Positions 5,936 through 57,721 of a stretch of DNA of 64,000 nucleotides are shown piece after piece (position 1 is the first letter of the stretch; each line of letters opens with the position of its first letter). The notes below the pieces were generated by a model. The model was not told where the DNA came from. It worked only from the letters and a program-made list of their open reading frames with translations, and ran no database searches. Position numbers and translations under genes: made by a program. This stretch comes from Candidatus Bathyarchaeia archaeon (GTDB lineage: Bacteria; Patescibacteriota; Microgenomatia; PFEM01; JAFGMK01): assembly GCA_035529595.1 (NCBI GenBank), contig DATKWK010000035.1, positions 317,904 through 381,903 of the forward strand. Reading direction: 5' to 3'.

Positions 5936-6063
5936 ACTCTCATCTTTACTTTAACCTCTTAAACCCAATAAACCACCCGCCCTGACGGGATTTAACAAAA
6001 TCCAATTCAGCCACCTTTAATAGTAATCTTCCTCGAAAAACCAAAAATCTATCTTAACGATTC

Positions 6064-6089
6064 AAAAAGGGGTGTTCACTTTAAACCCC
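6064..6089 (-). terminator. Putative intrinsic terminator downstream of the RRM-protein gene.
   Basis: Minus strand reads GGGGTttaaagtgaacACCCC followed by TTTTT, within 50 nt of the stop at 6137. Confidence 0.4.
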
Positions 6090-6136
6090 GGCTTGAACCT
6101 TGCATATATTTCAGATAGGACCAGCGGTAATTATTG

Positions 6137-6544
6137 CTACTCTGAATCAGAAGCTTGATCAGCAGATTCTGCCGCTACTTCTTCGGCTTCAGGTTCGACG
6201 GGTAGTTCTGATGATGGTGCTGGTTCCGGTTCAACGGTAACTTCAACAGCCGGCGCTGGGCTTTCTACTTGAGATTCTTGAGCAGACGGCTCGGTTTCTC
6301 TTGGCTGAGCTTCGGCTACCGACAATTTTCGACTCAGATCTTCCTGACCGTCAAACATTTCGATTGCCTTCTGAGCCTCCTCGACATTGCTCATTTCCAC
6401 AAAACCGAAACCCTTGGAACGACCAGTGCGCTTTCGTGTAATGACCGTTGCGCTGACAACAGTACCTGCTTTCGAAAATAAGTCCTTCAGCTGGTCGCTG
6501 GTCACACCATAATCAAGGTTACCAACATAAAGTCTGGGGTTCAA
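6137..6544 (-). CDS. RRM-type RNA-binding protein with an acidic, Pro/Glu-rich C-terminal tail.
   Basis: RNP-2 LYVGNL and RNP-1 KGFGFVEM motifs. The C-terminal 55 aa are Glu/Pro/Ala/Ser-rich low complexity. Confidence 0.8.
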   Translation of the reverse strand: MNPRLYVGNLDYGVTSDQLKDLFSKAGTVVSATVITRKRTGRSKGFGFVEMSNVEEAQKAIEMFDGQEDLSRKLSVAEAQPRETEPSAQESQVESPAPAVEVTVEPEPAPSSELPVEPEAEEVAAESADQASDSE

Positions 6545-6759
6545 ATTTTCTCACCTCCTTTTTTGAGTTTAATAAGCTTCTAAATAAAGCTTGCCGAAAT
6601 AAATCTAGAACTAGTTTATCAGGAAAGCGAATCAAAATAAATAGATAAATTTACCATGGTCCGATACTGCCCTTGACATGAGGACGGAAATATTATTAAA
6701 TGGTATTCAGAATTGCTTTGTGCCGGTCATTACGAAGCAAATACCGGCGAGAACGGAAA

Positions 6760-7314: not shown

Positions 7315-9723
7315 TTACTGTTTACTTTCGGCGTCTTTAAGAGCCAGTTTAAAAACTTCATCCACGCTATTAACATAAACAAATTCTATGTCTTTCTTTA
7401 CTTTCTTGGGAACATCAACCAAGTCCTTCCGATTATCCTTTGGTAAGATCACCTTTTTTAAACCAGCGCGGTGGGCAGCAATTACTTTCTCTTTGATCCC
7501 GCCGATTTCCAAAACCTGACCTCTTAAAGTTACCTCGCCTGTCATACCTATTTCTCGATGAATTGGACGTCTGCTGAAGGCCGAATATAAGGCAGAAGCG
7601 ATGGCAATCCCTGCGGAAGGACCATCCTTGGCAATTGCCCCTTCCGGAACATGAATATGAATATCCAGATTTTGATAGAAGTCCTTATCCAGGCCTAATT
7701 TTTCCCAACGGCTGCGAATATAAGAAAAGGCAGCCTTACAAGATTCTTTCATTACTTTTCCCAATTTACCAGTAAGCAGCAAGCTCCCCTTTCCTGGCAT
7801 CAAAGCCACTTCAATGAAAAGAATGTCGCCACCCGTCTGGGTATAAGCAAGACCGGTAGCAATTCCGATTTCGTCACTTTTTTCAGCCAGAACGGGACTA
7901 AATTTAGGCGGGCCCAAAAATCTCTGCAAACGAGCTATTTTTACTACCCGGGGAGCGTTCTTATTCTCAGCTACTCTTCGGGCAAGTTTCCGGCAAATAG
8001 TGGCTAAATTTCTCTCCAGTTCCCTTACTCCCGCCTCCCGAGTGTAACGATTGATTATTTCCCTCAATACCGATCCGTCGATTGAAACATCCTTTTCTCC
8101 CAGGCCGTTAAACCTAAGCTGTTTTTTCCACAAGAATCTTTTAGCAATATAAAACTTTTCATCTTCGGTATAACCTGGAAAACGAATAACTTCCATTCGA
8201 TCCCTCAAGGCTGGCGGAATCGTATCAAGAACATTGGCCGTAGTAATAAACATTACCTTAGAGAGATCAAAGGGGACTTCAAGATAGTGATCGGAAAATT
8301 CAAAATTCTGTTCCGGATCCAAAGCCTCAAGTAAAGCTGCTGAAGGATCACCGCGAAAATCTGTCCCCACCTTATCAATCTCATCGAGCATAAACACCGG
8401 ATTATTGGTCCCGGCGTTTTTAATTCCTTGAATAATCCGCCCGGGCATTGCGCCGACATATGTTCGTCGGTGACCGCGAATTTCTGCTTCATCCCGAATC
8501 CCTCCCAAACTCATGCGAACAAACTCCCGATCCAGAGACCGGGCAATCGATTTTCCTATTGAGGTTTTACCTACCCCCGGAGGACCAACGAAACATAGAA
8601 TAGTCGGCCCACCAGCTTCTTTTCTCTTCTCTTTCTTTCTTTTTTCACCAACCTCCTCAGTTACTGATTTTTCCTTTAACTTCATCACCGCAAGATATTC
8701 GGCAATCCTTTCCTTAATTTTCTCTAAACCATAATGATCGGCATCAAGGATCTTTACTGCCTCAGCTATATCTGCCTGATTGGGGCTGGATTTAGACCAG
8801 GGTAATTCCACCAATAAATCAAGATAAGTCCGAATGTAACCCTTCTCCGGATGATAGGCCGGAAGACGCATTAATCTTGATAATTCTTTTTTTGCCTTCT
8901 TAGTAACTTTAACTGGCATCTTAGCGGCCTTAATTTTTGTCTTCAGCTCCTTAATTTCCTGATCATCCCCGTCCTCTTCGCCTAATTCTTTCTCGATTAT
9001 TTTCTTCCTTTCCCTTAACATCGCTTCTCTAACCGATTTATCGAATTTATCTTTGGTTTTAGAGGAAATGCTCTGTTCAAGCTTAAGAACCTTAATTTCG
9101 TGAGACAGGTATTCGGCCACTTTTTCCATTCGTTTTCTAACCGAGACCAATTCTAGAAGTTCCTGTTTTTCTTTTGTCTCAATCTCAAGAACCGAAGCGA
9201 CCTGGTCAACCAACTCATTCGGGCTAATATCTGCTCCAATCAGTCTCATTACTGCCATTAAATCAACCGATTTACCTAAATTGACTGCACGTTTAAAACT
9301 TCTTTTCAAATACTGAGCCAGCGCTCTAGTATCATCATCTTTAACCACCATTTCCGGCATTGGCTTAATTTTGACTTGAAAAAAAGGCTCATCTTGAACA
9401 AAGGCCTCGATTCTTACACGACCGATTCCTTTTATTAAAGCATTAACTGCCTCTTCTGAAGGAAAAAGACGAATCAGTTTGGCCAATGTTCCGACCTGAT
9501 ATAAGTCATCCTCAGTCGGATTATTTATCTGTGATCTCTTCTGAGTAACCAAACAAATAAGATTATCCTTTTTTGAAGCCGCTTCAACGGCAGTAACTGA
9601 TTTTGCCCGGCCAAAAGTTAAGGCCACTTCGGTATAGGGAAAAACAACTGCACCTCTAACCGGCACCAGCGGTATTATTTGACTTTCAATAATTTTTTTA
9701 CCTTGTTTAAGTAGTAGAGTCAT
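7315..9723 (-). CDS. lon: ATP-dependent Lon protease.
   Basis: 802 aa. N-terminal LON domain, AAA+ Walker A GPPGVGKTS, Walker B FMLDEID, and proteolytic Ser motif DGPSAGIAI with a downstream Lys (catalytic dyad). Confidence 0.95.
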   Translation of the reverse strand: MTLLLKQGKKIIESQIIPLVPVRGAVVFPYTEVALTFGRAKSVTAVEAASKKDNLICLVTQKRSQINNPTEDDLYQVGTLAKLIRLFPSEEAVNALIKGIGRVRIEAFVQDEPFFQVKIKPMPEMVVKDDDTRALAQYLKRSFKRAVNLGKSVDLMAVMRLIGADISPNELVDQVASVLEIETKEKQELLELVSVRKRMEKVAEYLSHEIKVLKLEQSISSKTKDKFDKSVREAMLRERKKIIEKELGEEDGDDQEIKELKTKIKAAKMPVKVTKKAKKELSRLMRLPAYHPEKGYIRTYLDLLVELPWSKSSPNQADIAEAVKILDADHYGLEKIKERIAEYLAVMKLKEKSVTEEVGEKRKKEKRKEAGGPTILCFVGPPGVGKTSIGKSIARSLDREFVRMSLGGIRDEAEIRGHRRTYVGAMPGRIIQGIKNAGTNNPVFMLDEIDKVGTDFRGDPSAALLEALDPEQNFEFSDHYLEVPFDLSKVMFITTANVLDTIPPALRDRMEVIRFPGYTEDEKFYIAKRFLWKKQLRFNGLGEKDVSIDGSVLREIINRYTREAGVRELERNLATICRKLARRVAENKNAPRVVKIARLQRFLGPPKFSPVLAEKSDEIGIATGLAYTQTGGDILFIEVALMPGKGSLLLTGKLGKVMKESCKAAFSYIRSRWEKLGLDKDFYQNLDIHIHVPEGAIAKDGPSAGIAIASALYSAFSRRPIHREIGMTGEVTLRGQVLEIGGIKEKVIAAHRAGLKKVILPKDNRKDLVDVPKKVKKDIEFVYVNSVDEVFKLALKDAESKQ

Positions 9724-30863: not shown

Positions 30864-30915
30864 ACACCATTTAAGGTGTCTCAGATATCATACTGGGAGC
30901 CAAAGTGTATAATAA
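30864..30915. repeat. A-pal family hairpin end (ACACCATTTAAGGTGTCTCAGATA...).
   Basis: Perfect-arm hairpin ACACC-ATTTA-AGGTGT immediately upstream of the 30852 start codon. Confidence 0.5.
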
Positions 30916-32013: not shown

Positions 32014-32108
32014 CTTATTAATTACACCTTCAAGATGCCTTAGATATGATTCTTCTTGTTTTAAGTATACACCCAAATTATCGGTTGCAAGTTTTAGGGA
32101 AGACACCT
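32014..32108. repeat. A-pal family element, complete copy.
   Basis: ACACCTTCAAGATGCCTTAGATATGATTCTTCTTGTTTTAAGTATACACCCAAATTATCGGTTGCAAGTTTTAGGGAAGACACCTTGAGGGTGTAG. Confidence 0.6.
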
Positions 32109-32178
32109 TGAGGGTGTAGTAGGCTAGCTCCGTAAGAAATGCCCTGCGAGACAGACAACGTTTAGCCTTTTTTAAAAG

Positions 32179-33408: not shown

Positions 33409-33644
33409 CTTGAAGGTGGTTAACTACCTATTAAAAATAAGGGTAATCTCTACCAAATACCTTTTACTTCAAGATAGATAATTGAAACAATCATCATCAC
33501 AATCATAAAAAGAAAAATATATATAAATCTGGCCTTTTTATTGCGCGGTAGTTTTAAGTAACCCTCTTTAGTAATCAAAGGCGAAAAAACCTTGTGCAAA
33601 ATTTTAATTAAAAAATTTTCCATGCCGGCAATCCTTTTATGATT

Positions 33645-33722
33645 ACACTTTTAAAGTGTCTCAGATTAGCCACTTCTTGTTAAGTATACACCAAAGTTCT
33701 CGGCCGTAAGCTTGATGTTTTC
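33645..33722. repeat. A-pal family element (left hairpin plus core).
   Basis: ACACTTTTAAAGTGTCTCAGATTAGCCACTTCTTGTTAAGTATACACCAAAGTTCTCGGCCGTAAGCTTGATGTTTTC. A right-end-type hairpin (GACACCTTGAAGGTGG) lies at 33398-33424. Confidence 0.55.
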
Positions 33723-37190: not shown

Positions 37191-37290
37191 GATTTATATT
37201 ATATTTTAAAAATAATTTTTGAGCAATATTGAATATTTTTTATCTGGCTTTATCAGTAATTTTCTTCATATTCAATAAATCTATAGAATT

Positions 37291-37384
37291 ACACCTTCAG
37301 GGTGTCTCAGATATGGCACTTCTTGTTAAGTATACACCAAAATTACCGGCCGTAAGCTTGAGGGAAGACACTTTGAAGGTACAG
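37291..37384. repeat. A-pal family element, complete copy.
   Basis: ACACCTTCAGGGTGTCTCAGATATGGCACTTCTTGTTAAGTATACACCAAAATTACCGGCCGTAAGCTTGAGGGAAGACACTTTGAAGGT. Confidence 0.6.
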
Positions 37385-37400
37385 TTAGCCGGTTTTATTT

Positions 37401-38366: not shown

Positions 38367-38389
38367 GCTCTGGTAATTTATATATTTGG

Positions 38390-38663
38390 TACACCTTCAA
38401 AATGTCTCAGATTAGACACTTCTTTTATAAGTATACACCAAAATTCTCGGCCGAAAGCTTGATATTTTCACAAATTTTGCATCCTTGTCATCCTAATCCC
38501 GACTTTAGGTCGTGGAGAAGGATCCAGCGAAGCCAAGTCTGACTTGGCGAAGCGCTTACGCTAGATTCCTTGGAATGACAATAGAGTCTTGAAATAGGTT
38601 CTGATTTTTTTAAATCAGTAGAAAAAGTACCAAGGTGTCAAGGGAAAGACACCTTGAAGGTGT
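38390..38663. repeat. A-pal family element carrying a nested B-pal palindrome.
   Basis: Left ACACCTTCAAAATGTCTCAGATTAGACACTTCTTTTATAAGTATACACCAAAATTCTCGGCCGAAAGCTTGA. Right ...AAAAAGTACCAAGGTGTCAAGGGAAAGACACCTTGAAGGTGTT. Interior 38484-38580 is the second B-pal palindrome. Confidence 0.6.
38484..38580. repeat. Imperfect palindromic element, family B-pal, copy 2 (TTGTCATCC...GGAATGACAA), nested in an A-pal element.
   Basis: Terminal arms ttgtcatcc / ggaatgacaa are exact reverse complements. The interior gaaggatccagcgaagccaagtc-tgac-ttggcgaagcgcttacgctagattcc is palindromic. Its right arm matches copy 1 (14677-14768) in reverse orientation. Confidence 0.6.
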
Positions 38664-42412: not shown

Positions 42413-45259
42413 TCATAGGTTGTATTTGTCTTTTCTTTTTTCAAATGCCGCCTCACCGCCATCAAGAATGTCGCAAGCGTGTTCTCTAATTCCACAAGAC
42501 AGCAAAACAATTTCTTGAGTTTTATCCCTTTCTTTCGTGTACTCTAATGAGCCACTTAGATAATCAAACTTCTGGTTATCTTTATTTTTTCGGTCGTCGC
42601 CGTGCTGATTAGCAACCATGACTTGCTCCGAGTCAGCACCAACGACTAAATTTGCATTATGGCTAACCATAATAATTTGTCGCCTTTTCTTTTGCTCTTT
42701 CAAATAGGGAACAATCGAAAAATACATTGACCGGCTATCAAGGTCGTCCTCTGGCTGGTCAATCAAAAGAGGCCATGTGTCCGATTCTTTGGTTAACAGA
42801 AGGGTAAGCGCAAATAATGCCTGCTTTCCTTCTGTCATCGAACTACTACTGAAACCACCAATTGTGTCGTTTTCCATAGTTGAGTTGAACCGAATATCTT
42901 CAACGAAGGTTAAAACTTCCTTAGCGCAAAGTTGCGAATCTTCATCAAACAACACCTTTTGTTTTTTGGCAAACACGGCATCAAGAAAATTGTGAGGGTC
43001 ACTTCTTATTAAGTCGATTTTTAATAAATCTTTCTCTCTGTCAATAAAATCACTGCTCTCTTTTCTATTAAAGCGTGCGGATAGCTCTTCAAATTTTTGG
43101 GGATGGAATTGAATTTCAACCCCGAAACGGATTTTGCTATCTGACTGCTCAAGTGCAGCAAATTTCGTCTTTAGGGTATCTAGGGCTGAAGTTCTGTCGC
43201 TAACACTTTTTTTAATTAGTTCAGACAAATCTCTTAACTCGGTGTTTTTATCGGCGATTTCCTGTGTCAACTTTTCTATTGCCGATTTTCTTTCCTTCTG
43301 CTTGTCTAACTTCTCGATCAAATCCTGCAATTGCTCGTTTTTCTTACACTTTTCGATTAAATCCTTATTTGAATCGTATAGGGTTTTAATTTCAGACTGA
43401 ACTCGTGACTTCTCCTTATCCAAATCAGATTTATAGGCAAGAATTCTTTTTTGTACCAGCCCGCTAACGGTACTTGACCATTGAGTAACATCTTGGGTAA
43501 TCTTCTTCTGTAAATTTAACGGCAACGACTCGATTGCGGGCATAAAAGAAACTTTCGTAGTAATAGAGATAACCTTATCTTTCCTGTCGCTATCGTCTCG
43601 GTAAATAAATCCTTCAAGTTCGCCAAGCTCTTCATCAATCTTTTTTAATCTTGCTTCCTTGTTATGGATATCCTGACTTAGTTCCTTGTATTTTTTGACG
43701 TCTTCGTCGCTAAGGGAAGCAATTTTCTTAAGCTCATCGATCTTTTTTTCAAAATCCGCAATAACCTTTTCAATAGCTGTTTTGTCACCTTGCTCTTTAA
43801 TCTCTAGTTCTAGAGATCTAACTTCCTCTTTCGTGACAAACCACTTTGTAACTGATTCGGTAATGCTTTTGTTGTAAGTGTCTCTAATATCAATCTGGAG
43901 TCGCTCATAAACTTGTTTAATTTCCGGATAATTCTCAAACAACACAGGTTTAATCATGGCTGTAATATCATCCGGACGACTGCTTAATTCAGCCAGATAA
44001 TTTTGTGGAATATAAACAACTTTTCCGTGTTGCGTTAGTCCGTTACCCCACTCAACGGCAACCTCAAAGTTCACATCTTCCCAACTAACTTTTGCCGCGG
44101 GACCTTCGGGCTTGATCCCCTTTGCGCTTTCAGGGTCAACTGAACAAGCGAGATAGGCCAAAAGCGCTGATTTACCAGACGATCTACTTCCAATAATTGA
44201 GCTAAGGTTATCGTTAAACAGAATTTCATTCGGAAAATCAGAAGTGTTTTTAAAAATTATTTTACGAATAACACGGTCGGGCAACTTTCCACCCGGAGGA
44301 ATCGAGCCCATAAATACTCTTTCGCCGCTAATTGGCTCATAGACAATTTGTTTTAAGCCTTCATAAGTCAAATCGGCCTTTATCCAAGTAATCTCTTTCT
44401 CTACCTCACCTTTAGCATTTACAACTTTTTTGCCTAGGAAGTTGTCAACATCCTCGAAAGAATGCGCATCGCTACCAGACAATACCGGTTTTGGTGCTGT
44501 TTCTTCACCGTTATCTAGGCGTTCTTTATCCGAGAAGTGATCAACATTAGTTGAGCTTCCAAAAAACCCGTGACTAAACTTGTCTATCTCATCAGTAATT
44601 ACCGCCTTTCTCTGTTTGCCTCTAACTTTTCCAGCCACTTTTTCAGTATCCGTTCTAATGCCATCATTGTTTGCGGCGGCAATAATAAGCATATAATCAG
44701 TAAGATCAATCTTACTTCCAAAGGTTGCCTTAATTGCATCCTCTATGAACTGCCTTGTTGTTGTAGCTTTCTCAAAATCTTTGGTTGACGAAAGTTCAGA
44801 AGCCTTTATGTTTTTGCCTGAAAGGTTGTTGGTTTCATTTGTTTTGAGACTACTTAAAAACTCCCCAAGTCTGCTTTTGATATTCGGCATATCAGAATTA
44901 ACAATAAGGTGCAGATTTACTTCCTCCCCAGCTTTATTAACTACATCATTAGTACATACTTCAATATTTGGGAAAAACACTTTTGAGGAGTCGGGGTATT
45001 TATTTTTAAATTTATCTATAAAGGTAAAATAATTATCAACCGAAAAATAATCAGTGATACCAATTGCTACGACATCAGATTCCTCAATCTTCTTACAAAA
45101 TATATCCCAGGGATCACCGTCCTTTAATTTATATTGGTCATTCTTTTTGGTTCCAGGTGTATGAACTTGCAAATCCCATTTTCTCCATAGAGAACCCCGC
45201 GGATCGTTGATTCGTGTGTCTCGATCGTTCTGGTTATTGTTGCCACTACGTTTAGTCAT
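42413..45259 (-). CDS. PHP-domain phosphoesterase fused to an SMC/OLD-like ABC ATPase with a long coiled-coil insert; Ppl-like candidate antiviral defence protein.
   Basis: N-terminal PHP motifs WDLQVHTPGT (DLHVHT-like), GITDYFS, NIEVCTN, NLHLIV. Walker A GSRSSGKSALLAYLA at about aa 370. About 250 aa of E/K-rich coiled coil. C-terminal signature-like SMTEGKQALFAL, Walker B LLIDQPEDDLD, H-loop MVSHNANLV. This architecture (PHP plus ABC ATPase) matches the single-gene 'Ppl' defence system described among recently catalogued anti-phage genes. Confidence 0.65.
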   Translation of the reverse strand: MTKRSGNNNQNDRDTRINDPRGSLWRKWDLQVHTPGTKKNDQYKLKDGDPWDIFCKKIEESDVVAIGITDYFSVDNYFTFIDKFKNKYPDSSKVFFPNIEVCTNDVVNKAGEEVNLHLIVNSDMPNIKSRLGEFLSSLKTNETNNLSGKNIKASELSSTKDFEKATTTRQFIEDAIKATFGSKIDLTDYMLIIAAANNDGIRTDTEKVAGKVRGKQRKAVITDEIDKFSHGFFGSSTNVDHFSDKERLDNGEETAPKPVLSGSDAHSFEDVDNFLGKKVVNAKGEVEKEITWIKADLTYEGLKQIVYEPISGERVFMGSIPPGGKLPDRVIRKIIFKNTSDFPNEILFNDNLSSIIGSRSSGKSALLAYLACSVDPESAKGIKPEGPAAKVSWEDVNFEVAVEWGNGLTQHGKVVYIPQNYLAELSSRPDDITAMIKPVLFENYPEIKQVYERLQIDIRDTYNKSITESVTKWFVTKEEVRSLELEIKEQGDKTAIEKVIADFEKKIDELKKIASLSDEDVKKYKELSQDIHNKEARLKKIDEELGELEGFIYRDDSDRKDKVISITTKVSFMPAIESLPLNLQKKITQDVTQWSSTVSGLVQKRILAYKSDLDKEKSRVQSEIKTLYDSNKDLIEKCKKNEQLQDLIEKLDKQKERKSAIEKLTQEIADKNTELRDLSELIKKSVSDRTSALDTLKTKFAALEQSDSKIRFGVEIQFHPQKFEELSARFNRKESSDFIDREKDLLKIDLIRSDPHNFLDAVFAKKQKVLFDEDSQLCAKEVLTFVEDIRFNSTMENDTIGGFSSSSMTEGKQALFALTLLLTKESDTWPLLIDQPEDDLDSRSMYFSIVPYLKEQKKRRQIIMVSHNANLVVGADSEQVMVANQHGDDRKNKDNQKFDYLSGSLEYTKERDKTQEIVLLSCGIREHACDILDGGEAAFEKRKDKYNL

Positions 45260-45355: not shown

Positions 45356-47209
45356 TTATATTTCCGGTAAATGACTTTTAAGATATTTTTCTGTATCTTT
45401 ATCAATAAAATAAACATATACTCCCTTATGGGCCCGAGAAAGAAGTACGCGATAAACGTTTTTTAAGTGATTCGTGAGATTTGGATTATTACGTTTTACT
45501 TGCGTATCATGAGAATTTTCCGGAATCGCTCGCCACTTACTTTCAACCGGATCAAAAACCAAATCATTTCCAAAAATAACTGCAATATAGTCAAATTCAA
45601 ACCCTTGAGCTGTATAAACAGTTCCCACCTGTTCCATCCCCGAATCATCGGTAGCCCATTTCCAAAACTGGTCTTTTTTTTCCCATGGCATTTCGAAGTT
45701 TCCTATTTTTACGTCGTTAACTAAAGAATTATCTGGGATTGGTTTACTCCACGACCAACAAAATCCTGCAGTAATCCTCGCGGAATTAGGTTTCTCATGA
45801 TTTCTCTTCCGAATTTCTTCCATCATCTCTTGCGGGCTTTTAAAAATTTTAAATTCCATTTTAGGATCATATTCCGAAAATTCACTATCACCAATTCTTA
45901 AAACAAAATCTAACCATTGAAGGTAAGCATCGGAACCTGAACATCTAAATTGTGTTTTAAGCTCAAATTCAGAGATATCAGATTTTTTAATTCCCAAACG
46001 TTGCACTGCTTTTTTTATCATCTCGACGCTTCCTATTTCGTTCGGTCTCACGATCTGATTTTCGTCAATAAAGAAAATGCTTAATTTCGCTACATTTAAC
46101 AATTCGTCTATTTGGGGCAAATCTGTTCTTTGAACTTTCGGTGTATATCTATCTATGCTTGATTCTCTTATACGATGTGCCTCGTCGCAAATAAGCACAT
46201 CAAAAGAACCTGACTTCGTTGCAATAAAGCTGTTGAAAAATTTGAACAGGTTTTTTGCCCGAACACCAACTATATTTCTTAATGTATTTGTAAACGCGGA
46301 CGATCCCGTGGCATGTACGACCTTTCTCCCTTGCCTCAAAAGCTCCCCCATAACTTCTAATGCTATTACAGACTTCCCTGTGCCGGGACCACCCTTTACT
46401 ATCACTACTGATTTTTGCTTTGTTTTTGCGAACTGCTTAACTTTGTGCCTTATTGCATTGTAGGCAACAATTTGTTCATCAATTAAATTAAAAATTTGCC
46501 GTTTATTTATCATCTCCGATGTATGATCAAGTAGTTTTCTAGACGGTTCGATTGGGCTTCTTGCAAATCGTTCGTAAATCAATTTACCCTTACCACCCTG
46601 AAGGCGCTTTTTTAGATATCTTCCCAATTCAATAGCGTCTTCTTTTGCAAACAATGGAAAGGTTTTGATTAATTTAGAAAATTCCGAAGAAAAAAGTATG
46701 GCATCTTTATTCTTTGAATAATTATGTAGATATACAGATGCGCTTAATTCTGGCGAGTTCTTTTCTTGAAAAATCCTAAGAAAATCCTTTAGGCCGAAAT
46801 AGTATCCTTGCACTTGTAGCACGGGGTGTGGTTGTTCCCTCTTAAATTGCCCATAATCGACGACTACATTACCTTCACTTTCGGCGTCTTGCACGTGTTG
46901 ATTTGACCATTGTTTGAGTTCCATCATTACAACATTTTCTTCTCCATCCACGTCATGCCCAAAAAGCAAAACATCAATTCTTCGCGACGAAAAAGGAAGT
47001 TCGTATTCGACAATTATATGGTTGTCTTTAAGGCCGGCGTAATGAAAACTATTATTTAGGATTGCAAGCGAAATTGCCCATGATCTATATTCACGATCAG
47101 CTGGATCCTTTTTGTAGTAAGCTCGATATTTTTCGGCCGCACGATCCGCAATGCAGTTTTGCATTACATCTTCGTTAAATCGCTCGATTGTGCCTTCATA
47201 AAGAATCAT
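45356..47209 (-). CDS. DUF2075-like protein: N-terminal PD-(D/E)xK-type nuclease fused to an SF1/RecD-like P-loop helicase-like ATPase.
   Basis: N-terminal IDVLLFGHD...VVMMELKQW (D...ExK). Walker A VIVKGGPGTGKSVIALEVM. Walker B VLICDEAHRI. C-terminal TVYTAQGFEFDYIAVIFGNDLVFD, characteristic of DUF2075/UvrD_C_2-type domains. Confidence 0.7.
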   Translation of the reverse strand: MILYEGTIERFNEDVMQNCIADRAAEKYRAYYKKDPADREYRSWAISLAILNNSFHYAGLKDNHIIVEYELPFSSRRIDVLLFGHDVDGEENVVMMELKQWSNQHVQDAESEGNVVVDYGQFKREQPHPVLQVQGYYFGLKDFLRIFQEKNSPELSASVYLHNYSKNKDAILFSSEFSKLIKTFPLFAKEDAIELGRYLKKRLQGGKGKLIYERFARSPIEPSRKLLDHTSEMINKRQIFNLIDEQIVAYNAIRHKVKQFAKTKQKSVVIVKGGPGTGKSVIALEVMGELLRQGRKVVHATGSSAFTNTLRNIVGVRAKNLFKFFNSFIATKSGSFDVLICDEAHRIRESSIDRYTPKVQRTDLPQIDELLNVAKLSIFFIDENQIVRPNEIGSVEMIKKAVQRLGIKKSDISEFELKTQFRCSGSDAYLQWLDFVLRIGDSEFSEYDPKMEFKIFKSPQEMMEEIRKRNHEKPNSARITAGFCWSWSKPIPDNSLVNDVKIGNFEMPWEKKDQFWKWATDDSGMEQVGTVYTAQGFEFDYIAVIFGNDLVFDPVESKWRAIPENSHDTQVKRNNPNLTNHLKNVYRVLLSRAHKGVYVYFIDKDTEKYLKSHLPEI

Positions 47210-47323: not shown

Positions 47324-48016
47324 TTATATTAAGTTTTGTTCCTTTAAACTGTAAAATTTGTTTTTAGTAACGATAATGTGATCGAGAAGTTCAATACCAA
47401 AAATTTTAGCTGCTTCTTCCAAGCGTCTCGTTAGCGCAACGTCTTCCGGTGAGGCTTCAGGATTTTCCGATGGATGGTTATGGGCAATTATTATTTGTGC
47501 AGCAAAGGACTGAATCGCTTCTTTAAAAACTTCCCGGGGGTGTACAATACTTGAATTAAGCGAACCTACTGAAATATTACTGATTTTTATTAAACAATTA
47601 TGTGCATCAAGAGACAGCACAACAAAATGCTCTTTCTTTTCCCGTCCGATAGATTTTTGCAAAAAGTTAGCTACTGCCCTTGATGAATTAAGTGTAATTT
47701 TCTCTGGTAGGTGCTCTCTTGCGAGGCGCTCAGCTACTGCCTGAAAAAGTTTTATACCAAATGCATTAGATGGTCCAATACCTTTAATCTTTTGTAAATC
47801 TTCCAGCGAAGCATCAAGTACTCCTCGTAAACCACTAAGCTCTTTAATAGCTTGTTTTGCCATTTGCTTACAATCTTTCCGAGGGGTACCCAACGTTAAA
47901 AGTAATTCCACAATTTCATAATCAAGAAAACCGTCAAATCCACTTTTCAAGAAACGTATTCTTAATCTTTTCCTGTGGCCTTCCATTTTTTGTGGATCCT
48001 TAAGGGAAATTGTCAT
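47324..48016 (-). CDS. radC: RadC-like JAB/MPN-domain protein.
   Basis: N-terminal HhH region (IKGIGPSNAF). JAMM motif IIIAHNHPSENPEASPEDVALTRRL. Confidence 0.85.
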   Translation of the reverse strand: MTISLKDPQKMEGHRKRLRIRFLKSGFDGFLDYEIVELLLTLGTPRKDCKQMAKQAIKELSGLRGVLDASLEDLQKIKGIGPSNAFGIKLFQAVAERLAREHLPEKITLNSSRAVANFLQKSIGREKKEHFVVLSLDAHNCLIKISNISVGSLNSSIVHPREVFKEAIQSFAAQIIIAHNHPSENPEASPEDVALTRRLEEAAKIFGIELLDHIIVTKNKFYSLKEQNLI

Positions 48017-48022
48017 TATTAC

Positions 48023-48370
48023 CTACAATTTGTCGTATTTAGCATGACGTCCCTTCGCTTTCTCGATAGGATATTTTTCTTCGTTTTTGTCCATCTTTTT
48101 GCTTAAAGCATCGACAATATCTATCTCCAAATCATGGCTCATCAATAATATCCAATAAAGAACATCGGCCAACTCTTCTCCGATATGTTCCTTGTGAGCT
48201 GAAATGTATTCCTCCAATTCTTTTCCGTTTTTCCATTGAAAATGCTCAACAACCTCTGAGGCTTCCAATGTAAGGGAAAGGGCTACATCTTTTGGGTTAT
48301 GAAATTGTTTCCAATCACGAGCGTCTCGGAAGGCAATTATTCGTTTTATTAATTTGTCAAGATTTTTCAT
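48023..48370 (-). CDS. MazG-like nucleoside triphosphate pyrophosphohydrolase (small all-alpha NTP-PPase).
   Basis: 115 aa. EASEVVEHF...EELADVLYWILLMS is the MazG/HisE EExxD/E metal-binding helix pair. Confidence 0.7.
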   Translation of the reverse strand: MKNLDKLIKRIIAFRDARDWKQFHNPKDVALSLTLEASEVVEHFQWKNGKELEEYISAHKEHIGEELADVLYWILLMSHDLEIDIVDALSKKMDKNEEKYPIEKAKGRHAKYDKL

Positions 48371-50569: not shown

Positions 50570-51301
50570 TTAACAACTAATTCCCAATTTCGCGAATGTC
50601 GAGGAAAGTGTCCGTCCCATCAGGTCAAAAAAATCATCGGTCATTTTGTCATCCAGACCGTACTTCCGATACACCCAATCGGCATAGTGATAGTTCATCC
50701 GGTCAACTATTACATAGTCAACCTTTCCCTCAAGGATTTCCGCAAGACCTTCTGCCCCGGGAAGCATCGGTGCGATCATGACATATGTCCTTATCCCAGC
50801 CCGGTGTAATTCATCAAGTGCTCTCACTCTAGCCCTGATTGTAGGAACATCCGGTTCAAATAGTTTCCTGATACTATCATCAGCCGTGGCAATACTAAAA
50901 CCGACTTCAAAATCTTTTCCTTTTTTTAGAATATCGATATCTCGTAGAACTAAAGGAGATTTGGTTTGGATTATGACCGACCAGTTGTTTTGTGCCAGTA
51001 TTTCCAGACATTGGCGCGTAAGTTTATATTTTACCTCTAGCGGCTGGTATGGATCACATACTCCACTGATCCAAACCTTCCCTGGCTTTTTCTTAGTGAT
51101 TTCCAGCCTTAATAGATCGGGGGCATTAACCTTGACATCGACAAATTGACCCCAGGGCTCCCGGTGCCCGGTAAATCTTTTCATAAAACGGGCGTAGCAG
51201 TACGAACAACCATGTTGACAACCCGTATAAGGATTAAGGTCATACTGATAGACCTTCGATACGGATAGAATAGTTTTTGACTGTATTTCTTTTACAATCA
51301 T
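50570..51301 (-). CDS. Radical SAM protein of the SplB/'DNA repair photolyase' (COG1533-like) type.
   Basis: CQHGCSYCYARF (CxxxCxxC embedded in the COG1533-typical ...GC.HGC.YCYAR context) near the N-terminus. Confidence 0.7.
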   Translation of the reverse strand: MIVKEIQSKTILSVSKVYQYDLNPYTGCQHGCSYCYARFMKRFTGHREPWGQFVDVKVNAPDLLRLEITKKKPGKVWISGVCDPYQPLEVKYKLTRQCLEILAQNNWSVIIQTKSPLVLRDIDILKKGKDFEVGFSIATADDSIRKLFEPDVPTIRARVRALDELHRAGIRTYVMIAPMLPGAEGLAEILEGKVDYVIVDRMNYHYADWVYRKYGLDDKMTDDFFDLMGRTLSSTFAKLGISC

Positions 51302-51387
51302 GGCTATATTCTACCAGAAAAGATATTACCCAACAGTCTCTTAATTTTTTGGTGGGGAAAAAACTAAAAGAAATTCTTTTGCTAACT

Positions 51388-52290
51388 TTAACGAAACATT
51401 TCAATCGCTAGGACTGTATCTTTCACATCAAGGTAGGCTATCATACAACCACATCGGCTACAGTCAATTGTTACTTTCTTTTGATCGGGGCTTCCCATCT
51501 GGCAAGGATAAAGCTTTTTACCCTCGAAATTTAAATTTAATCGCGTTTTAAATTTAGCACTGCATTTTTTGATCCATTTGCCGGCCTGTCTTGAACTCAT
51601 CTTTTGCAAAATTCTTTCGCTATTCCAGGGCATAAACTTAGGTCTTTTTAATCTAAGAGTTTTTAATTTGTCAATCACTCTGTCTCTCTCGCTGAAGGTG
51701 AGGCACAAAGTGTCATCTTCACCTTTTTGGGGAGTATAAAAGTCATAGATTACACCCGCTACTTCAGTTTCAGACCATTCCTTATAAAAGTCTTCAATGT
51801 TATCTTTGTTTTCTTTGCTAATAGTCATAAGTATGTATATTTTTAAACCCTTGGCGGCCCCATCCAGGATGTTTTTTTTGATTAAATCATACTGTTTGCC
51901 GTTGAAACCATTGCCTCTGATTTTTTCGTGGTATTTTTTGGTTCCGTCAACTGAAACACCAAAGGTGACATCTTTCCAATCCGGCAAAGGAATGGTTCCG
52001 TTTGTAATTATCATGTTTACAGGAAAGTATTTTTTTCCAATTTTAATTAGATCTTGTCTAAGTAATGGCTCGCCTCCCACATAGGCCATTGATATGGTCC
52101 CTTGTTTAATCAAACTTCTGAACACTTTTATCCATTTGTCTTCTGGCAAGTCTTGGCTTTTAGAGTTTTTCCTGAAGCAATGTAGGCAATTCAGGTTGCA
52201 CTTATTAGTTACTTCCATTCCCACGGATTTTATTTTTCCAAAAGACAAGACAGATAACTTAATAATCTTTAAAAAACTTTTTACTCTCAT
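51388..52290 (-). CDS. Radical SAM enzyme with a C-terminal Cys-rich (SPASM/twitch-like) region.
   Basis: EVTNKCNLNCLHCF (CxxxCxxC). GGEPLL glycine-rich SAM motif. C-terminal C..C..CSRCGC cysteines. Confidence 0.7.
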   Translation of the reverse strand: MRVKSFLKIIKLSVLSFGKIKSVGMEVTNKCNLNCLHCFRKNSKSQDLPEDKWIKVFRSLIKQGTISMAYVGGEPLLRQDLIKIGKKYFPVNMIITNGTIPLPDWKDVTFGVSVDGTKKYHEKIRGNGFNGKQYDLIKKNILDGAAKGLKIYILMTISKENKDNIEDFYKEWSETEVAGVIYDFYTPQKGEDDTLCLTFSERDRVIDKLKTLRLKRPKFMPWNSERILQKMSSRQAGKWIKKCSAKFKTRLNLNFEGKKLYPCQMGSPDQKKVTIDCSRCGCMIAYLDVKDTVLAIEMFR

Positions 52291-52416
52291 ATTTCTAAAA
52301 TATACTAAATTAACTTCAATTGTAATATTAAACTGACTTTTCCAGTGCCGTTTTATTTCTTACCTAGCCTTCGATACTAAATATACCTCAAACCAATCTG
52401 AAGGAAACTCTGATTA

Positions 52417-52452
52417 CCAAGGTGTCAAGGGTGAGACACCTTAAAGGTGTAT
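52417..52452. repeat. A-pal family right-end hairpin (CCAAGGTGTCAAGGGTGAGACACCTTAAAGGTGTAT).
   Basis: Near-identical in form to 38627-38663 (CCAAGGTGTCAAGGGAAAGACACCTTGAAGGTGTT). Confidence 0.55.
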
Positions 52453-52454
52453 TT

Positions 52455-53288
52455 TTAACCAACCCTAAAGCTTTCTAGAAAGTAGTACCACTGAGCAGTT
52501 TCTTGAACATAGGCATCAATCTGCCGCCAATCGGGGCCGATTCCTTTACCTTGGCTTTGATCAACTATCATTCCCATTTGGCTAAATCTTCTTGGATCAG
52601 GAGCAAAAACAGCCTGGCTGATCCCCAATTCATTTTGGTTCCAAGGTTGGGCCGGTAAAATTTTTATCATTAAACAATCAGCAACAAAATCTCTCATCGT
52701 TGACGGCCGGTCATCAATAAAAACCTGCAGATTAAATCGAGTTATCATGCCGAGTTTAAAATCTAAGTCGGTTACCCCCGGAGAGCGAATAATCAGTCTG
52801 TTTTCGTCGACTACCCAATCCAGGCCGAGATTCTTAAACCAGTCTTGAGTTGCCTGGCCAATTCCATATTGGTCGACTCTACCGCTGATAAAGAAAACTT
52901 CATATCCCTGATTTCGCCAGTCGCAAATTACTTCCAGAGCACCCGGGTAAACGACCGCGTTTTGAAAAACATCAGTTCTCTCATAGTAAAGCTGCTTGAG
53001 AAATTCTTTGGCTCCCGGAGTATCGGCAACTAAAGGATGTTTGGCCAGATCCCAATCAAGAGTATCCTCAACCCGAAGATGAACCTCCTCTCCCCTTATT
53101 TGGCTTAGATATTGACTCATAACTGCAAGTGCGTAAGGATGACTATCGGCAAATGTCCCATCCAGGTCAACACCGATTCCTAACCTTCTGATATCCCACT
53201 CCGGAGTCGACCGGCCAGTTCTTTCTATAGCCATAAAAATGAAGTGGTATATCTTCCACTTTTTCCCACTGTAAGACGATTTTACCAC
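52455..53288 (-). CDS. HAD-like 5'(3')-deoxyribonucleotidase-family protein (putative nucleotidase).
   Basis: IGVDLDGTFADSHPY resembles the NT5C-family motif I (DMDGVLAD). 277 aa. Weak overall. Confidence 0.5.
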   Translation of the reverse strand: MVKSSYSGKKWKIYHFIFMAIERTGRSTPEWDIRRLGIGVDLDGTFADSHPYALAVMSQYLSQIRGEEVHLRVEDTLDWDLAKHPLVADTPGAKEFLKQLYYERTDVFQNAVVYPGALEVICDWRNQGYEVFFISGRVDQYGIGQATQDWFKNLGLDWVVDENRLIIRSPGVTDLDFKLGMITRFNLQVFIDDRPSTMRDFVADCLMIKILPAQPWNQNELGISQAVFAPDPRRFSQMGMIVDQSQGKGIGPDWRQIDAYVQETAQWYYFLESFRVG

Positions 53289-54642: not shown

Positions 54643-55521
54643 TCAGTCTACCAGTCCTTCAGATTTAAAAATTTCAGGATATACTTGATAAAGCTTGGCA
54701 ATCAGCTCATCAAAATCGCGACAACTCATTATCATCCTGACTACCTGCCGGTTACTCCGGTTCCTGGTTATGTCTTTAACAAATTGGCACATGGAGCTTA
54801 CTAGCTCATCGATCGGATACTCCGTTTTCTTGCCGGTGGCTAAAATTTTCATCAATGAAGGAGAAAAACGGCTGACATCCCGAAAAACCTGTCTCCAAAA
54901 TCCGGGTATCGAATCAACCGTCAATAAATCACCTTCAGGATCAGTCACTTCTCCGATGACTGCGATTAATTCATTCAAAGCCGGGGCATCAGATGTTTTC
55001 CTCTCATATATCAGTGGGTCTGTAGCATGGATTTTTTCATGCCTTTTTATCTGCCTGGGCTCTAAATGACCTCTAATATACTCTGCACAAACGAAAACAA
55101 TTGAAAGCGGCCTCATATCCTCTTCGACATCTAATGCCAGCGTCGTACCTTGAACCAAAGACAGATCAGTCCGACGCAAAAAAGATTGATAATGTCTCTG
55201 CCGGCGAAATTCAAAGACCGGAACTAAAAGACCGCCGTCAGTAATCTGTGAGACCGGCTCGAGGGCAAATTTAGCACCTGCCAGTGATCTTCCAGGAAGA
55301 GCGTATTGTTCACAGAACCGGCTTCTCAACCAACCTTCAAAATTTGGCCGCTGGCTTTCCTGCATCATAAATTCATACCAGCGGCTTGCTCTTGGACTCA
55401 TTTTAACTATTTCTGCGTACGGCGGGGCAATTTCCTGGGGAATTGGTTGCTCGGTTTTCTCTATATCCTCTGCTGCCCCAAAGATTATTCTAGGCCCTAA
55501 CATCTTTATCTCCTTTATCAA
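54643..55521 (-). CDS. Hypothetical protein.
   Basis: 292-aa ORF. Overlaps the upstream NTPase gene by 32 nt (probably co-transcribed). Confidence 0.45.
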   Translation of the reverse strand: MIKEIKMLGPRIIFGAAEDIEKTEQPIPQEIAPPYAEIVKMSPRASRWYEFMMQESQRPNFEGWLRSRFCEQYALPGRSLAGAKFALEPVSQITDGGLLVPVFEFRRQRHYQSFLRRTDLSLVQGTTLALDVEEDMRPLSIVFVCAEYIRGHLEPRQIKRHEKIHATDPLIYERKTSDAPALNELIAVIGEVTDPEGDLLTVDSIPGFWRQVFRDVSRFSPSLMKILATGKKTEYPIDELVSSMCQFVKDITRNRSNRQVVRMIMSCRDFDELIAKLYQVYPEIFKSEGLVD

Positions 55522-56368
55522 TTAAATCTAAAATCACCGACTGGATATGGGAACATTCTCCGACTTTCCCGGCATAATCTTTTCTGCCTTTAAACAGATC
55601 GCAATCACAGTAGAAATTATTATTAACCAAACTTAGTCTGACCAAGTGACTGTCATGCTTTCCAATCACCCGATAGATTTCTTCGTTGGCAGTCTCTTTT
55701 TCAAGAGCGATTTTTTTGTTGATCACATAAAAAAGAGCGTTATTAAACAGCTTCCTGATTTGGATAAATTGGTTTTGAGAAAAATATTGCCTGGTAAGTT
55801 GTAAAAACTTATCTCTCTGAGATAAAGATAATCGGTTTATTTGACTGATACTACGATAAATAAGAAGCAGCAGTTCAGGTAATATTTCCCTATTAGTCTC
55901 GTCAACCTCAATCAAAACCGCCCCAGGGTGTTTTTTAAATTCAATTGACCAAGGCTCGGGATCAAAAACAATCGTTGCCAAGATATTACATTCACTATTA
56001 AGAGTTTCACGAATCGCTTGCATAAATAATTTTGAGAACGACTGCATCCGGCCAATTTCATCAATCAAAATCACTGAATCCGGATCCTGAATGCCTCGTT
56101 TAATTTCCGGAACAACAAAATCATCAATCGCCTTAATGTCAACATGATATTTTCCACCGACTATAAATTCGGATTTAATTTTGTATTTATGGGCAAAGAC
56201 TTTTTCTTTTTTGGCCGAGTTTTCCGCTGAAAAACCAACCCGGTTGTTATCCTCATCCCTTAATTCCCTGGCAACTATTCCATAGATTTTTCCGGTAAAA
56301 CCGCCCCTGAATTTTTGAAGGATAGTGCTTTTGCCGATACCCGGCCGGCCGGTAAGTAAAATTTTCAT
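55490..56368 (-). CDS. THEP1/COG1618-like P-loop NTPase fused to a C-terminal SWIM-type zinc finger.
   Basis: MKILLTGRPGIGKSTIL (Walker A at the extreme N-terminus, as in THEP1 NTPases). Walker B ILIDEIG. C-terminal CDCDLFKGRKDYAGKVGECSHIQS (CxCxnCxH). Confidence 0.65.
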   Translation of the reverse strand: MKILLTGRPGIGKSTILQKFRGGFTGKIYGIVARELRDEDNNRVGFSAENSAKKEKVFAHKYKIKSEFIVGGKYHVDIKAIDDFVVPEIKRGIQDPDSVILIDEIGRMQSFSKLFMQAIRETLNSECNILATIVFDPEPWSIEFKKHPGAVLIEVDETNREILPELLLLIYRSISQINRLSLSQRDKFLQLTRQYFSQNQFIQIRKLFNNALFYVINKKIALEKETANEEIYRVIGKHDSHLVRLSLVNNNFYCDCDLFKGRKDYAGKVGECSHIQSVILDLIDKGDKDVRA

Positions 56369-56416
56369 AATAGGCTGTTGATTGAAGTATGGAAACAGTG
56401 TACAAAAAACTACCGA

Positions 56417-57721
56417 TTAAATCAAACCAACTACCGCCGCTACCTGATAGATTAGATCGTAAACTAAAGCGGAATATTCTGGAGCGTCTACGTCTCCCAG
56501 CATTCCCCCAAGGCCACACTGAGGACTAACCATTAGGCCTCTCATAACTTCTTCAAGAGTCATTCTGGAATCAGGTGGCAGTTTTTCGTTGGTTAAAATT
56601 TTGATAACCTTTTCGACTCTTGCAGCACAAGCTTGAACGAAAGCAGTTCTTAACTCATTATCTTTAAATAAAGTTTTTATTTGGCCATCTCCGCCTATCT
56701 GCTTGATTAGTTCTCTCGTATCGTCAGGATTAGTCGGAACAACTCCAGTCACCAATCTTCCGCCTCTTAAAATGAATGCCTTAAGCGCTGGCTCATTTCC
56801 GGCTGCCAGTTCGGCATTTTTATAAACATCCCAATTCAAAAGGTCAACATATTCCAGAAATTCAGGTACAATAACGTCGCAGACATGAATCATCCGCGAA
56901 TAAGGAAGATAATCGGGATTTGCCCAAAGTAACTCATAAGTATCCAAAGCTGTCCTTAATCTTGGTCCACCCCGTTCTTGGTCTAAATATTTAAAGCAAG
57001 GTTCATCAAAGGAGCAGACAACATTGCAGCCGTATTTCTCAAGAGCTTTAGCCCAAAGTATGGAACGGGCTAAAATTAATAGTGAATGAGTAGCCAAAGC
57101 TTCGTAGCTTCTGACGATTAATTTATCTTCGAATTCGCCCGATTCGTTTTGGACTTTAGAATAGTAAGCAGTATTAATCGGACCGGCTATCTGAATCTTA
57201 ACCGTCCTATTTGTTAAATCAATCCTACCTTGTTCAGCCGCTTCGATTATTATTTGTATCCCTACTGGTAATTCGGCCATTCCAGGACATAAACTGACTA
57301 AAGTGCTTAAGGCTTCATCTCGCATCCTAATACCTTCACTAGGATTACGGGCATATCCACCACCGGCTAGACTAATGCAAGCAGCGTGGATCTGATCGAA
57401 TAATTCTCTTTTTGAATCTGGCACAATGAAGTCGCCTAACCTTGCGCCATCATCCAGGGTAACTTGAAGATCATAACAAGGATCAGCAGGGCTTTCAGAA
57501 TGAAAAGATACAAACGGTAAACCAGCCATTGCTTCAGAATTCATATAATATCGAGGTCCAAGTTGAGGCAGTTGAGGTGCAACGATCATTTGCCCTTTTT
57601 CCATCTGCTTATGGACTGACAGATCAAAGGCTACCCCAAGAATTTCTCCTTGCGTCCCTGGAGGGACAAACAGACTACCAATAAAAGTAACTTTATCTCG
57701 CGCTTCAATACGAGGAGTCAT
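56417..57721 (-). CDS. MetE C-terminal domain/URO-D-superfamily protein (cobalamin-independent methionine-synthase-like Zn methyltransferase).
   Basis: IHVCDV (His-x-Cys Zn ligands) and C-terminal SPQCGLGGM (the PDCGL Cys-ligand motif of MetE-like enzymes). Confidence 0.5.
   Translation of the reverse strand: MTPRIEARDKVTFIGSLFVPPGTQGEILGVAFDLSVHKQMEKGQMIVAPQLPQLGPRYYMNSEAMAGLPFVSFHSESPADPCYDLQVTLDDGARLGDFIVPDSKRELFDQIHAACISLAGGGYARNPSEGIRMRDEALSTLVSLCPGMAELPVGIQIIIEAAEQGRIDLTNRTVKIQIAGPINTAYYSKVQNESGEFEDKLIVRSYEALATHSLLILARSILWAKALEKYGCNVVCSFDEPCFKYLDQERGGPRLRTALDTYELLWANPDYLPYSRMIHVCDVIVPEFLEYVDLLNWDVYKNAELAAGNEPALKAFILRGGRLVTGVVPTNPDDTRELIKQIGGDGQIKTLFKDNELRTAFVQACAARVEKVIKILTNEKLPPDSRMTLEEVMRGLMVSPQCGLGGMLGDVDAPEYSALVYDLIYQVAAVVGLI

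Follow-up and report, generated by a model that had tools for sequence, protein, structure and literature searches.

Two neighbouring radical SAM genes and a HAD-family gene are probably independent genes rather than a conserved functional module

Do three neighbouring genes on one strand, two of them encoding radical S-adenosylmethionine (SAM) enzymes and the third a haloacid dehalogenase-type (HAD) protein, belong to one pathway? The question is raised by positions 50570-53288 of a 64,000-nucleotide stretch of DNA (contig DATKWK010000035.1 of assembly GCA_035529595.1, positions 317,904 to 381,903 of the forward strand; the whole of this stretch is referred to here as the window). An earlier note on this DNA had proposed that the genes form a nucleotide-modifying cluster, acting either in antiviral defence or in the maturation of ribosomally synthesised and post-translationally modified peptides (RiPPs). 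The reading favoured here, with a probability of roughly 0.7, is that they are three independent neighbouring genes that do not form a conserved functional module. Each of the proteins falls into a known superfamily, in which it is an uncharacterised member. The features of the locus are, in the direction of transcription:

52455-53288, minus strand: open reading frame (ORF) of the HAD gene, encoding a putative NT5C-like phosphatase of 277 amino acids (aa) when read from a GTG
52455-53234, minus strand: the same gene from its likelier start, 259 aa from ATG 53234, as in the public gene call
52395-52454, minus strand: copy of an intergenic palindrome element, AAGGTGTCAAGG-N5-ACACCTTnAAGGTGT, directly after the HAD stop codon
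51388-52290, minus strand: rSAM2, a radical SAM protein of 300 aa with CNLNCLHC, GGEPLL and a C-terminal domain that appears twitch-like
51302-51387, minus strand: 86-nt spacer that separates rSAM2 from rSAM1; a -10-like TAGAAT in it ends 6 nt before the rSAM1 ATG, an arrangement of leaderless type
50570-51301, minus strand: rSAM1, a COG1533/SplB-like radical SAM protein of 243 aa whose CX3CX2C motif consists of C28, C32 and C35

The three ORFs are present on the minus strand at these limits and each contains the motif that had been quoted for it: CQHGCSYCYARF forms residues 28-39 of rSAM1, GGEPLL residues 72-77 of rSAM2 (whose C-terminal cysteines are 243, 263, 277, 280 and 282) and DLDGTFAD residues 41-48 of the HAD protein. 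The assignment of two proteins to the radical SAM and one to the HAD superfamily was also correct, with both of the former scoring above the Pfam Radical_SAM cutoff of 29.5 bits (61 bits for rSAM1 and 48 bits for rSAM2). A palindrome does lie beside the HAD gene as described, although the order of the genes required correction: along transcription the HAD gene is not placed after the radical SAM genes but comes first, followed by the palindrome, rSAM2 and rSAM1, all in the same orientation. For the HAD gene, ATG 53234 is a likelier start than GTG 53288, as it agrees with the public gene call and with the N-terminal length of its relatives, which have 18-22 residues ahead of the DxD motif.

The neighbourhoods of related genes carry the argument for independence. 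For rSAM2, a scan in which a single genome represented each GTDB species yielded 80 loci (65 with at least 1 kb of downstream sequence and 72 with at least 1.2 kb of upstream sequence) from hosts including Desulfobacterales, Pyrinomonadaceae, Planctomycetota, Saccharibacteria, Hadarchaea and Methanosarcinales, and at none of these 80 was a homologue of rSAM1 or of the HAD protein detected within 8 kb of the rSAM2-family gene (phmmer, E<=1e-3). The corresponding scan for rSAM1 covered 80 metagenome loci with relatives 70-89% identical to it, 47 of them with at least 1.2 kb of upstream sequence; a profile search identified no rSAM2- or HAD-family gene beside any of the 80, and the most frequent neighbour family near rSAM1 was seen at no more than five. 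Inspection of the contexts of the three nearest HAD relatives showed no neighbour of rSAM1 or rSAM2 type, and the loci of the nearest rSAM2 relatives (46-49% identical) and of rSAM1 relatives in Anaerolineaceae and Parcubacteria have no other gene in common with the window. The HAD/rSAM2/rSAM1 adjacency was seen in this genome only, which has been recovered in several assemblies. Since relatives of these genes are never neighbours elsewhere, their adjacency here looks like chance. The three would be separately inherited, independent genes that happen to share a strand in a bacterial genome of low GC content and strong strand bias; where a genome contains several radical SAM genes, it would be not very improbable for two of them to be neighbours by chance. 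The functional cluster proposed for the three genes is therefore not borne out, the co-occurrence check having shown no association for any of the families; their adjacency is no evidence of a pathway, and the locus is a poor candidate for a new defence or natural-product system.

Several points weigh against independence. The HAD family is sparse (59 distant relatives, with three contexts seen), so that its co-occurrence statistics are weak, and a functional link confined to this genome could exist and would be compatible with the lack of conservation elsewhere. The three genes are co-oriented, with gaps of 164 nt between HAD and rSAM2 and 86 nt between rSAM2 and rSAM1, and there is no convincing intrinsic terminator between them. 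In principle, all three proteins could also touch nucleic-acid or nucleotide chemistry, the HAD protein being NT5C-like, rSAM1 SplB-like and rSAM2 a match to BlsE.

What kind of enzyme, then, is rSAM2? It belongs to a coherent family (389 matches, the nearest 49% identical) in which CNLxCxHC, GGEP, C243, C263, C277, C280 and C282 are invariant, the five conserved cysteines of the C-terminal region forming the pattern C-X19-C ... C-X2-C-X-C. Its structure model (predicted local distance difference test, pLDDT, of 90) has a single N-terminal helix and a core that begins at about residue 25; the best structural neighbours of this model are twitch/SPASM enzymes, with BlsE second and viperin eighth, while a sequence search of solved structures gave matches at the level of the core only. 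Pfam detects Radical_SAM and a weak Fer4_12 in rSAM2, and no SPASM domain. The SPASM motif comprises seven cysteines. Because rSAM2 has only five conserved cysteines and no Pfam SPASM domain, it is classed from its sequence as a twitch-like auxiliary-cluster enzyme and not as SPASM proper; its earlier description as SPASM/twitch-like holds for the CX3CX2C core and the twitch-like C-terminal cysteine domain, and does not hold for a seven-cysteine or Pfam-type SPASM. It differs from SkfB, BlsE, anSME and MoaA in having five conserved C-terminal cysteines and not the seven-cysteine SPASM motif, and in lacking an N-terminal RiPP recognition element (RRE) or other peptide-binding domain. Its scores are far under the cutoff of every characterised twitch/SPASM family and of viperin (AhbC, 59 bits against a cutoff of 650; PapB, 59 against 340; MoaA, 49 against 325; viperin, 42.1 against 180), and its genomic context is not conserved. 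It is a member of an uncharacterised family of ~300-340 aa, with one auxiliary Fe-S cluster predicted in the twitch-like C-terminal domain. Such an enzyme would act by reductive cleavage of SAM, directing the 5'-deoxyadenosyl radical at its substrate, for which a small molecule or a lipid would be as likely as a peptide.

SkfB, PapB and maturases of sactipeptides and ranthipeptides are among the best sequence and structure matches of rSAM2, and they speak for a RiPP maturase of the SPASM/twitch type that acts on a nearby precursor peptide. This is nevertheless very improbable. The flanking intergenic regions of the window, when searched for small peptides, were without a plausible ORF, which agrees with the earlier remark that no obvious precursor is visible nearby; the only small-ORF candidates are one of 24 aa with a TTG start, lying over the HAD stop codon, and one of 54 aa that overlaps both radical SAM genes. 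Small ORFs beside the nearest rSAM2 homologues are mutually unrelated, and the window contains nothing that corresponds to them. Furthermore, the radical SAM core of rSAM2 has only ~24 residues ahead of it, leaving no room for an RRE domain, and in most genomes the rSAM2-family gene is solitary, without peptidase or transporter neighbours. The lack of a precursor ORF and of room for an RRE, together with scores far under all of the maturase family cutoffs, led to the RiPP-maturation reading being set aside.

The antiviral alternative supposes a lineage-specific, viperin-like system of three genes in which a radical SAM enzyme makes a chain terminator or other modified nucleotide, which would then be processed by the NT5C-like phosphatase. 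It draws on the adjacency and common orientation of the genes, on the NT5C-like character of the HAD protein and on the fact that BlsE, the second-best structural neighbour of rSAM2, acts on a nucleoside; in addition, the prokaryotic viperin (pVip) models of PADLOC match rSAM2 weakly (46 bits) and defence-like genes (Ppl-like and DUF2075/SLFN-type helicase) are located 3-8 kb away. Viperin has no auxiliary Fe-S domain and possesses instead a viperin-specific C-terminal nucleotide-binding extension. In contrast, rSAM2 possesses an auxiliary-cluster domain, aligns with the pVip model NF038283 over residues 23-131 only (42 bits, cutoff 180) and has no conserved genomic partner among nucleotide kinases or other nucleotide-metabolism genes. 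The identification of rSAM2 as a viperin was rejected on score, auxiliary cysteine domain and genomic context, and on the same three grounds the viperin-like antiviral function suggested in the earlier note is judged very unlikely. Among viral sequences, IMG/VR contains two full-length matches to the rSAM2 family only, both ~30% identical, and those in GenBank phages are at core level only.

The rSAM2-family gene is mostly solitary, and its neighbourhoods are conserved only inside clades. Of the 80 genome loci, 11 contain an additional SPASM-type radical SAM gene (~460-515 aa), unrelated to the first and in most cases directly upstream of it in the same orientation; nine of the 11 are labelled Deltaproteobacteria or Desulfobacterales/-aceae (the loci include L011, L012, L017, L019, L023, L025, L027, L044 and L077). 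In Pyrinomonadaceae, the rSAM2-family gene is situated between acyltransferase-like genes, which by their sequences seem LpxL/DUF374-like, and the gene of a large membrane protein. Such neighbours hint at clade-specific roles, perhaps involving lipids.

The HAD protein possesses the catalytic motifs I-IV of its superfamily (DxD, S/T, K and DD). The residues that do not vary in the family alignment are D41 and D43 of motif I, K178, D193 and R137, the last being the arginine of a motif II region of the form (I/F)(S/T)xR. Its relatives are few: an exhaustive HMMER scan of 1.84 billion representatives gave 59 at E<=1e-3, the best of them 39% identical, a word-indexed search returned the protein itself only, and no solved structure was matched significantly by sequence. 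The likeness of motif I to that of 5'(3')-deoxyribonucleotidases, which had been remarked on earlier, has support: DxDG(T/V)xxD is present, and NT5C (PF06941) is matched by 16 of 27 relatives (best E = 4.9e-12). The window protein, at 19 bits, falls just under the NT5C gathering threshold of 24.8. It resembles the NT5C enzymes in this motif, in the conserved lysine and in the Asp-Asp motifs, and differs from them in constituting a sparse, divergent branch and in having an insertion of ~22 residues before a conserved C-terminal tryptophan. At locus L090 (4195-5564), the gene of its nearest relative (39% identical) and a thymidylate kinase gene share one base, the last of the kinase gene and the first of the relative's, an instance of translational coupling that supports a role in nucleotide metabolism for this sparse NT5C-like branch. 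Another relative is located upstream of a MurA-MraY-MurD-FtsW-MurG operon. The HAD protein is predicted to belong to the NT5C-like branch and to act as a Mg2+-dependent phosphomonoesterase, with Asp41 the likely nucleophile and Asp43 the acid/base, and its substrate would most likely be a (deoxy)nucleoside monophosphate.

The COG1533 'SplB / DNA repair photolyase' group includes spore photoproduct lyase (SPL), the PA0069 and Rv2578c families and radical SAM mobile pair protein B. Within this group, rSAM1 has a tight, solitary and horizontally mobile clade of its own. Its best NCBIfam match is TIGR04470 (mobile pair protein B; 157 bits, cutoff 410), and it also matches the PA0069 family NF033668 (154.5 bits, cutoff 360, covering model positions 57-230 of 348), spore photoproduct lyase TIGR04070 (30.2 bits, cutoff 400) and the Pfam SPL model (19 bits, cutoff 27). 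At 243 aa, it is much shorter than the models of SPL (338 positions), PA0069 (348) and protein B (285). More than 7800 homologues were found, and the best 120 of these are 79-88% identical and include proteins labelled Anaerolineaceae, Chloroflexi and Parcubacteria. The clade is large, its members being solitary genes with 70-89% amino-acid identity, and 93 of 243 positions are invariant in it (27 representative sequences).

Solved structures gave no match to rSAM1, whether searched with the single sequence or with a profile. The fold search was uninformative on its substrate, because it retrieved generic radical SAM cores only and the N-terminal 56 residues of the model are of low confidence. 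A literature search on PA0069 or 'radical SAM mobile pair' found nothing, and COG1533 turned up in SOS-regulon papers only, in which splB-like genes of this group have been described as LexA-regulated in several phyla (PMC4951493, PMC8565304). As this regulation is the only functional lead, the best guess would be that damaged DNA is the target of the radical chemistry of rSAM1, as the analogies to spore photoproduct lyase and to the LexA-regulated COG1533 genes suggest.

The similarity of rSAM1 to protein B also raises the question of whether rSAM2 and rSAM1 together are a divergent form of the 'radical SAM mobile pair' (TIGR04471/TIGR04470) of plasmids and other mobile elements. Protein B of the Selenomonas plasmid pSRC6 is 41% identical to rSAM1 over 210 residues, the two radical SAM genes of the window are adjacent and co-oriented in the order known from the pair, where the B gene also follows its partner, and rSAM1 is itself horizontally mobile. 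Even so, a mobile pair is very improbable here. The top score of rSAM1, 157 bits, falls far under the protein B cutoff, and BLASTP detects no similarity between rSAM2 and protein A of pSRC6 (E = 5.3). Protein A has 232 aa, and its cluster motif, GCTVGCPYCYA, may be DUF5131/Gp37-like. The A and B genes of pSRC6 overlap and follow a MarR regulator, whereas the genes in the window are separated by 86 nt and Pfam finds no MarR among their neighbours. Finally, close relatives of rSAM1 lack a radical SAM partner in all 47 loci with enough upstream sequence.

How rSAM1 came to its present position may be judged from comparisons among its copies, which occur across Chloroflexota, Patescibacteria-like and other sediment bacteria at the identities given above (loci L007, at 6001-6738, and L096-L109 are among those compared). 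At the nucleotide level, the window gene is 84-89% identical to its closest copies and 79% to a copy from Parcubacteria, and its similarity to other copies starts at the ATG and stops at the stop codon. Against copies with a flanking GC content of 0.49-0.53 (the window has 0.40), the rate of synonymous substitution (dS) is 0.34-0.47 and unsaturated, the ratio of non-synonymous to synonymous substitution (dN/dS) being 0.13-0.25, between hosts that are 9-13 GC points apart; for remoter copies dS is saturated and dN is still no higher than 0.15. The GC content of the gene is more than 8 points under that of its flanks in 16 of 55 loci, and on an Anaerolineaceae contig a sharp trough coincides with the rSAM1-clade gene (0.43 against 0.59 in the flanks). 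A -10-like TAnnnT that ends 5-9 nt before the ATG is present in 35 of 79 loci, where 10.5 would be expected, TAGAAT being the window copy; a Shine-Dalgarno-like motif occurs in only seven of the 79. These GC contrasts, the dS values, the invariant positions, the similarity bounded by the ORF and the -10 hexamers together indicate that rSAM1 is a slowly evolving, solitary gene under strong purifying selection, often with its own promoter, that has recently crossed phylum boundaries. The predicted promoter-like site ahead of the window copy would argue against an obligate co-transcription with rSAM2.

When the other rSAM1 loci are compared with one another, their similarity reaches 60-140 nt upstream and 0-130 nt downstream of the gene, ending at a different point from case to case. 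The possibility that rSAM1 is a transposon or cassette with defined ends was rejected, owing to the lack of a fixed boundary and of terminal repeats. An origin from viruses was likewise rejected: no close copy was found among the 2.9 million viral contigs of IMG/VR, and GenBank phages encode distant SplB-like proteins only, no more than 42% identical to rSAM1.

It is tentatively suggested, though it is rather doubtful, that rSAM1 represents an undescribed, self-contained mobile trait of a single gene, equipped with its own leaderless-type promoter and repeatedly acquired across phyla. If true, this would imply a universal target, for instance one particular kind of DNA lesion or some conserved RNA, and an immediately selectable benefit similar to that of Cfr-type resistance genes. 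Of the three genes, the rSAM1 clade alone merits further attention; it is a tractable entry to the role of COG1533 enzymes in non-sporulating anaerobes, a matter of modest importance.

The palindrome beside the HAD gene, ACACCTTAAAGGTGT at 52436-52450, is located 5-19 nt past its stop codon. The element ACACCTTnAAGGTGT has seven copies in the window at two mismatches or fewer, against 0.12 expected, and an eighth, gapped, copy at 30864; the longer motif given in the feature list is common to three copies. The palindromes are positioned as follows, most of them directly downstream of minus-strand genes and one between divergent genes:

30864, 31204, 32103, 33405, 33645, 37291, 38649 and 52436: copies of the palindrome in the window

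After the HAD gene, the palindrome has a fold energy of -14.7 kcal/mol with a weak z of -1.6 and is without a U-tract. It was rejected on these grounds as a clear intrinsic terminator between HAD and rSAM2. Its possible roles include terminator, repetitive extragenic palindrome (REP)-like element and operator.

Some of the palindromes coincide with a family of intergenic repeats of ~75-100 nt, of which four copies, 61-86% identical, were observed:

32020-32120, 33641-33715, 37287-37385 and 38387-38462: intergenic repeats

Each of them opens with the same palindrome, two also close with it, and CTCAGAT..CACTTCTTGTTAAGTATACACCAAA is contained inside. They could be elements resembling miniature inverted-repeat transposable elements (MITEs) or REPs, a small RNA or a promoter module; a comparison with Rfam gave no match at gathering level.

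The other genes of the window bear on the nature of its host and on the character of the region. Searches of the window for tRNAs and Rfam families were negative. The genome, although publicly labelled 'Candidatus Bathyarchaeia archaeon', is probably that of a low-GC bacterium, possibly a Patescibacteria-like one, and the contigs on which these genes occur reach 847 kb; the window encodes LonA of the bacterial type (LON substrate-binding domain, AAA and Lon_C), an S26 signal peptidase and RadC. The relevant features are:

7315-9723: LonA
563-2299: S26 signal peptidase
42413-45259: defence-like gene, 948 aa, with a Ppl-like C-terminal ATPase region (PADLOC Ppl, 57 bits)
45356-47209: defence-like gene, 617 aa, a DUF2075/SLFN-type helicase (PDC-S41, 79 bits; Nhi/AbiO, about 52 bits)
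47324-48016: RadC, following the two defence-like genes
48023-48370: MazG-like gene

An accessory character of the region is plausible, yet it provides no link among the HAD, rSAM2 and rSAM1 genes.

On the minus strand, positions 54643-57721 hold three tightly packed genes of 292, 292 and 434 aa, the first two of which overlap by 32 nt. The two 292-aa genes, which were the ones scanned with PADLOC, gave no match, and comparison of the genes with PHROGs gave a weak match of 22 bits only. They may form an uncharacterised operon. The middle gene alone matches NTPase_1 (PF03266), and the C-terminus of its product has a CxC...CxH arrangement resembling a SWIM zinc finger.

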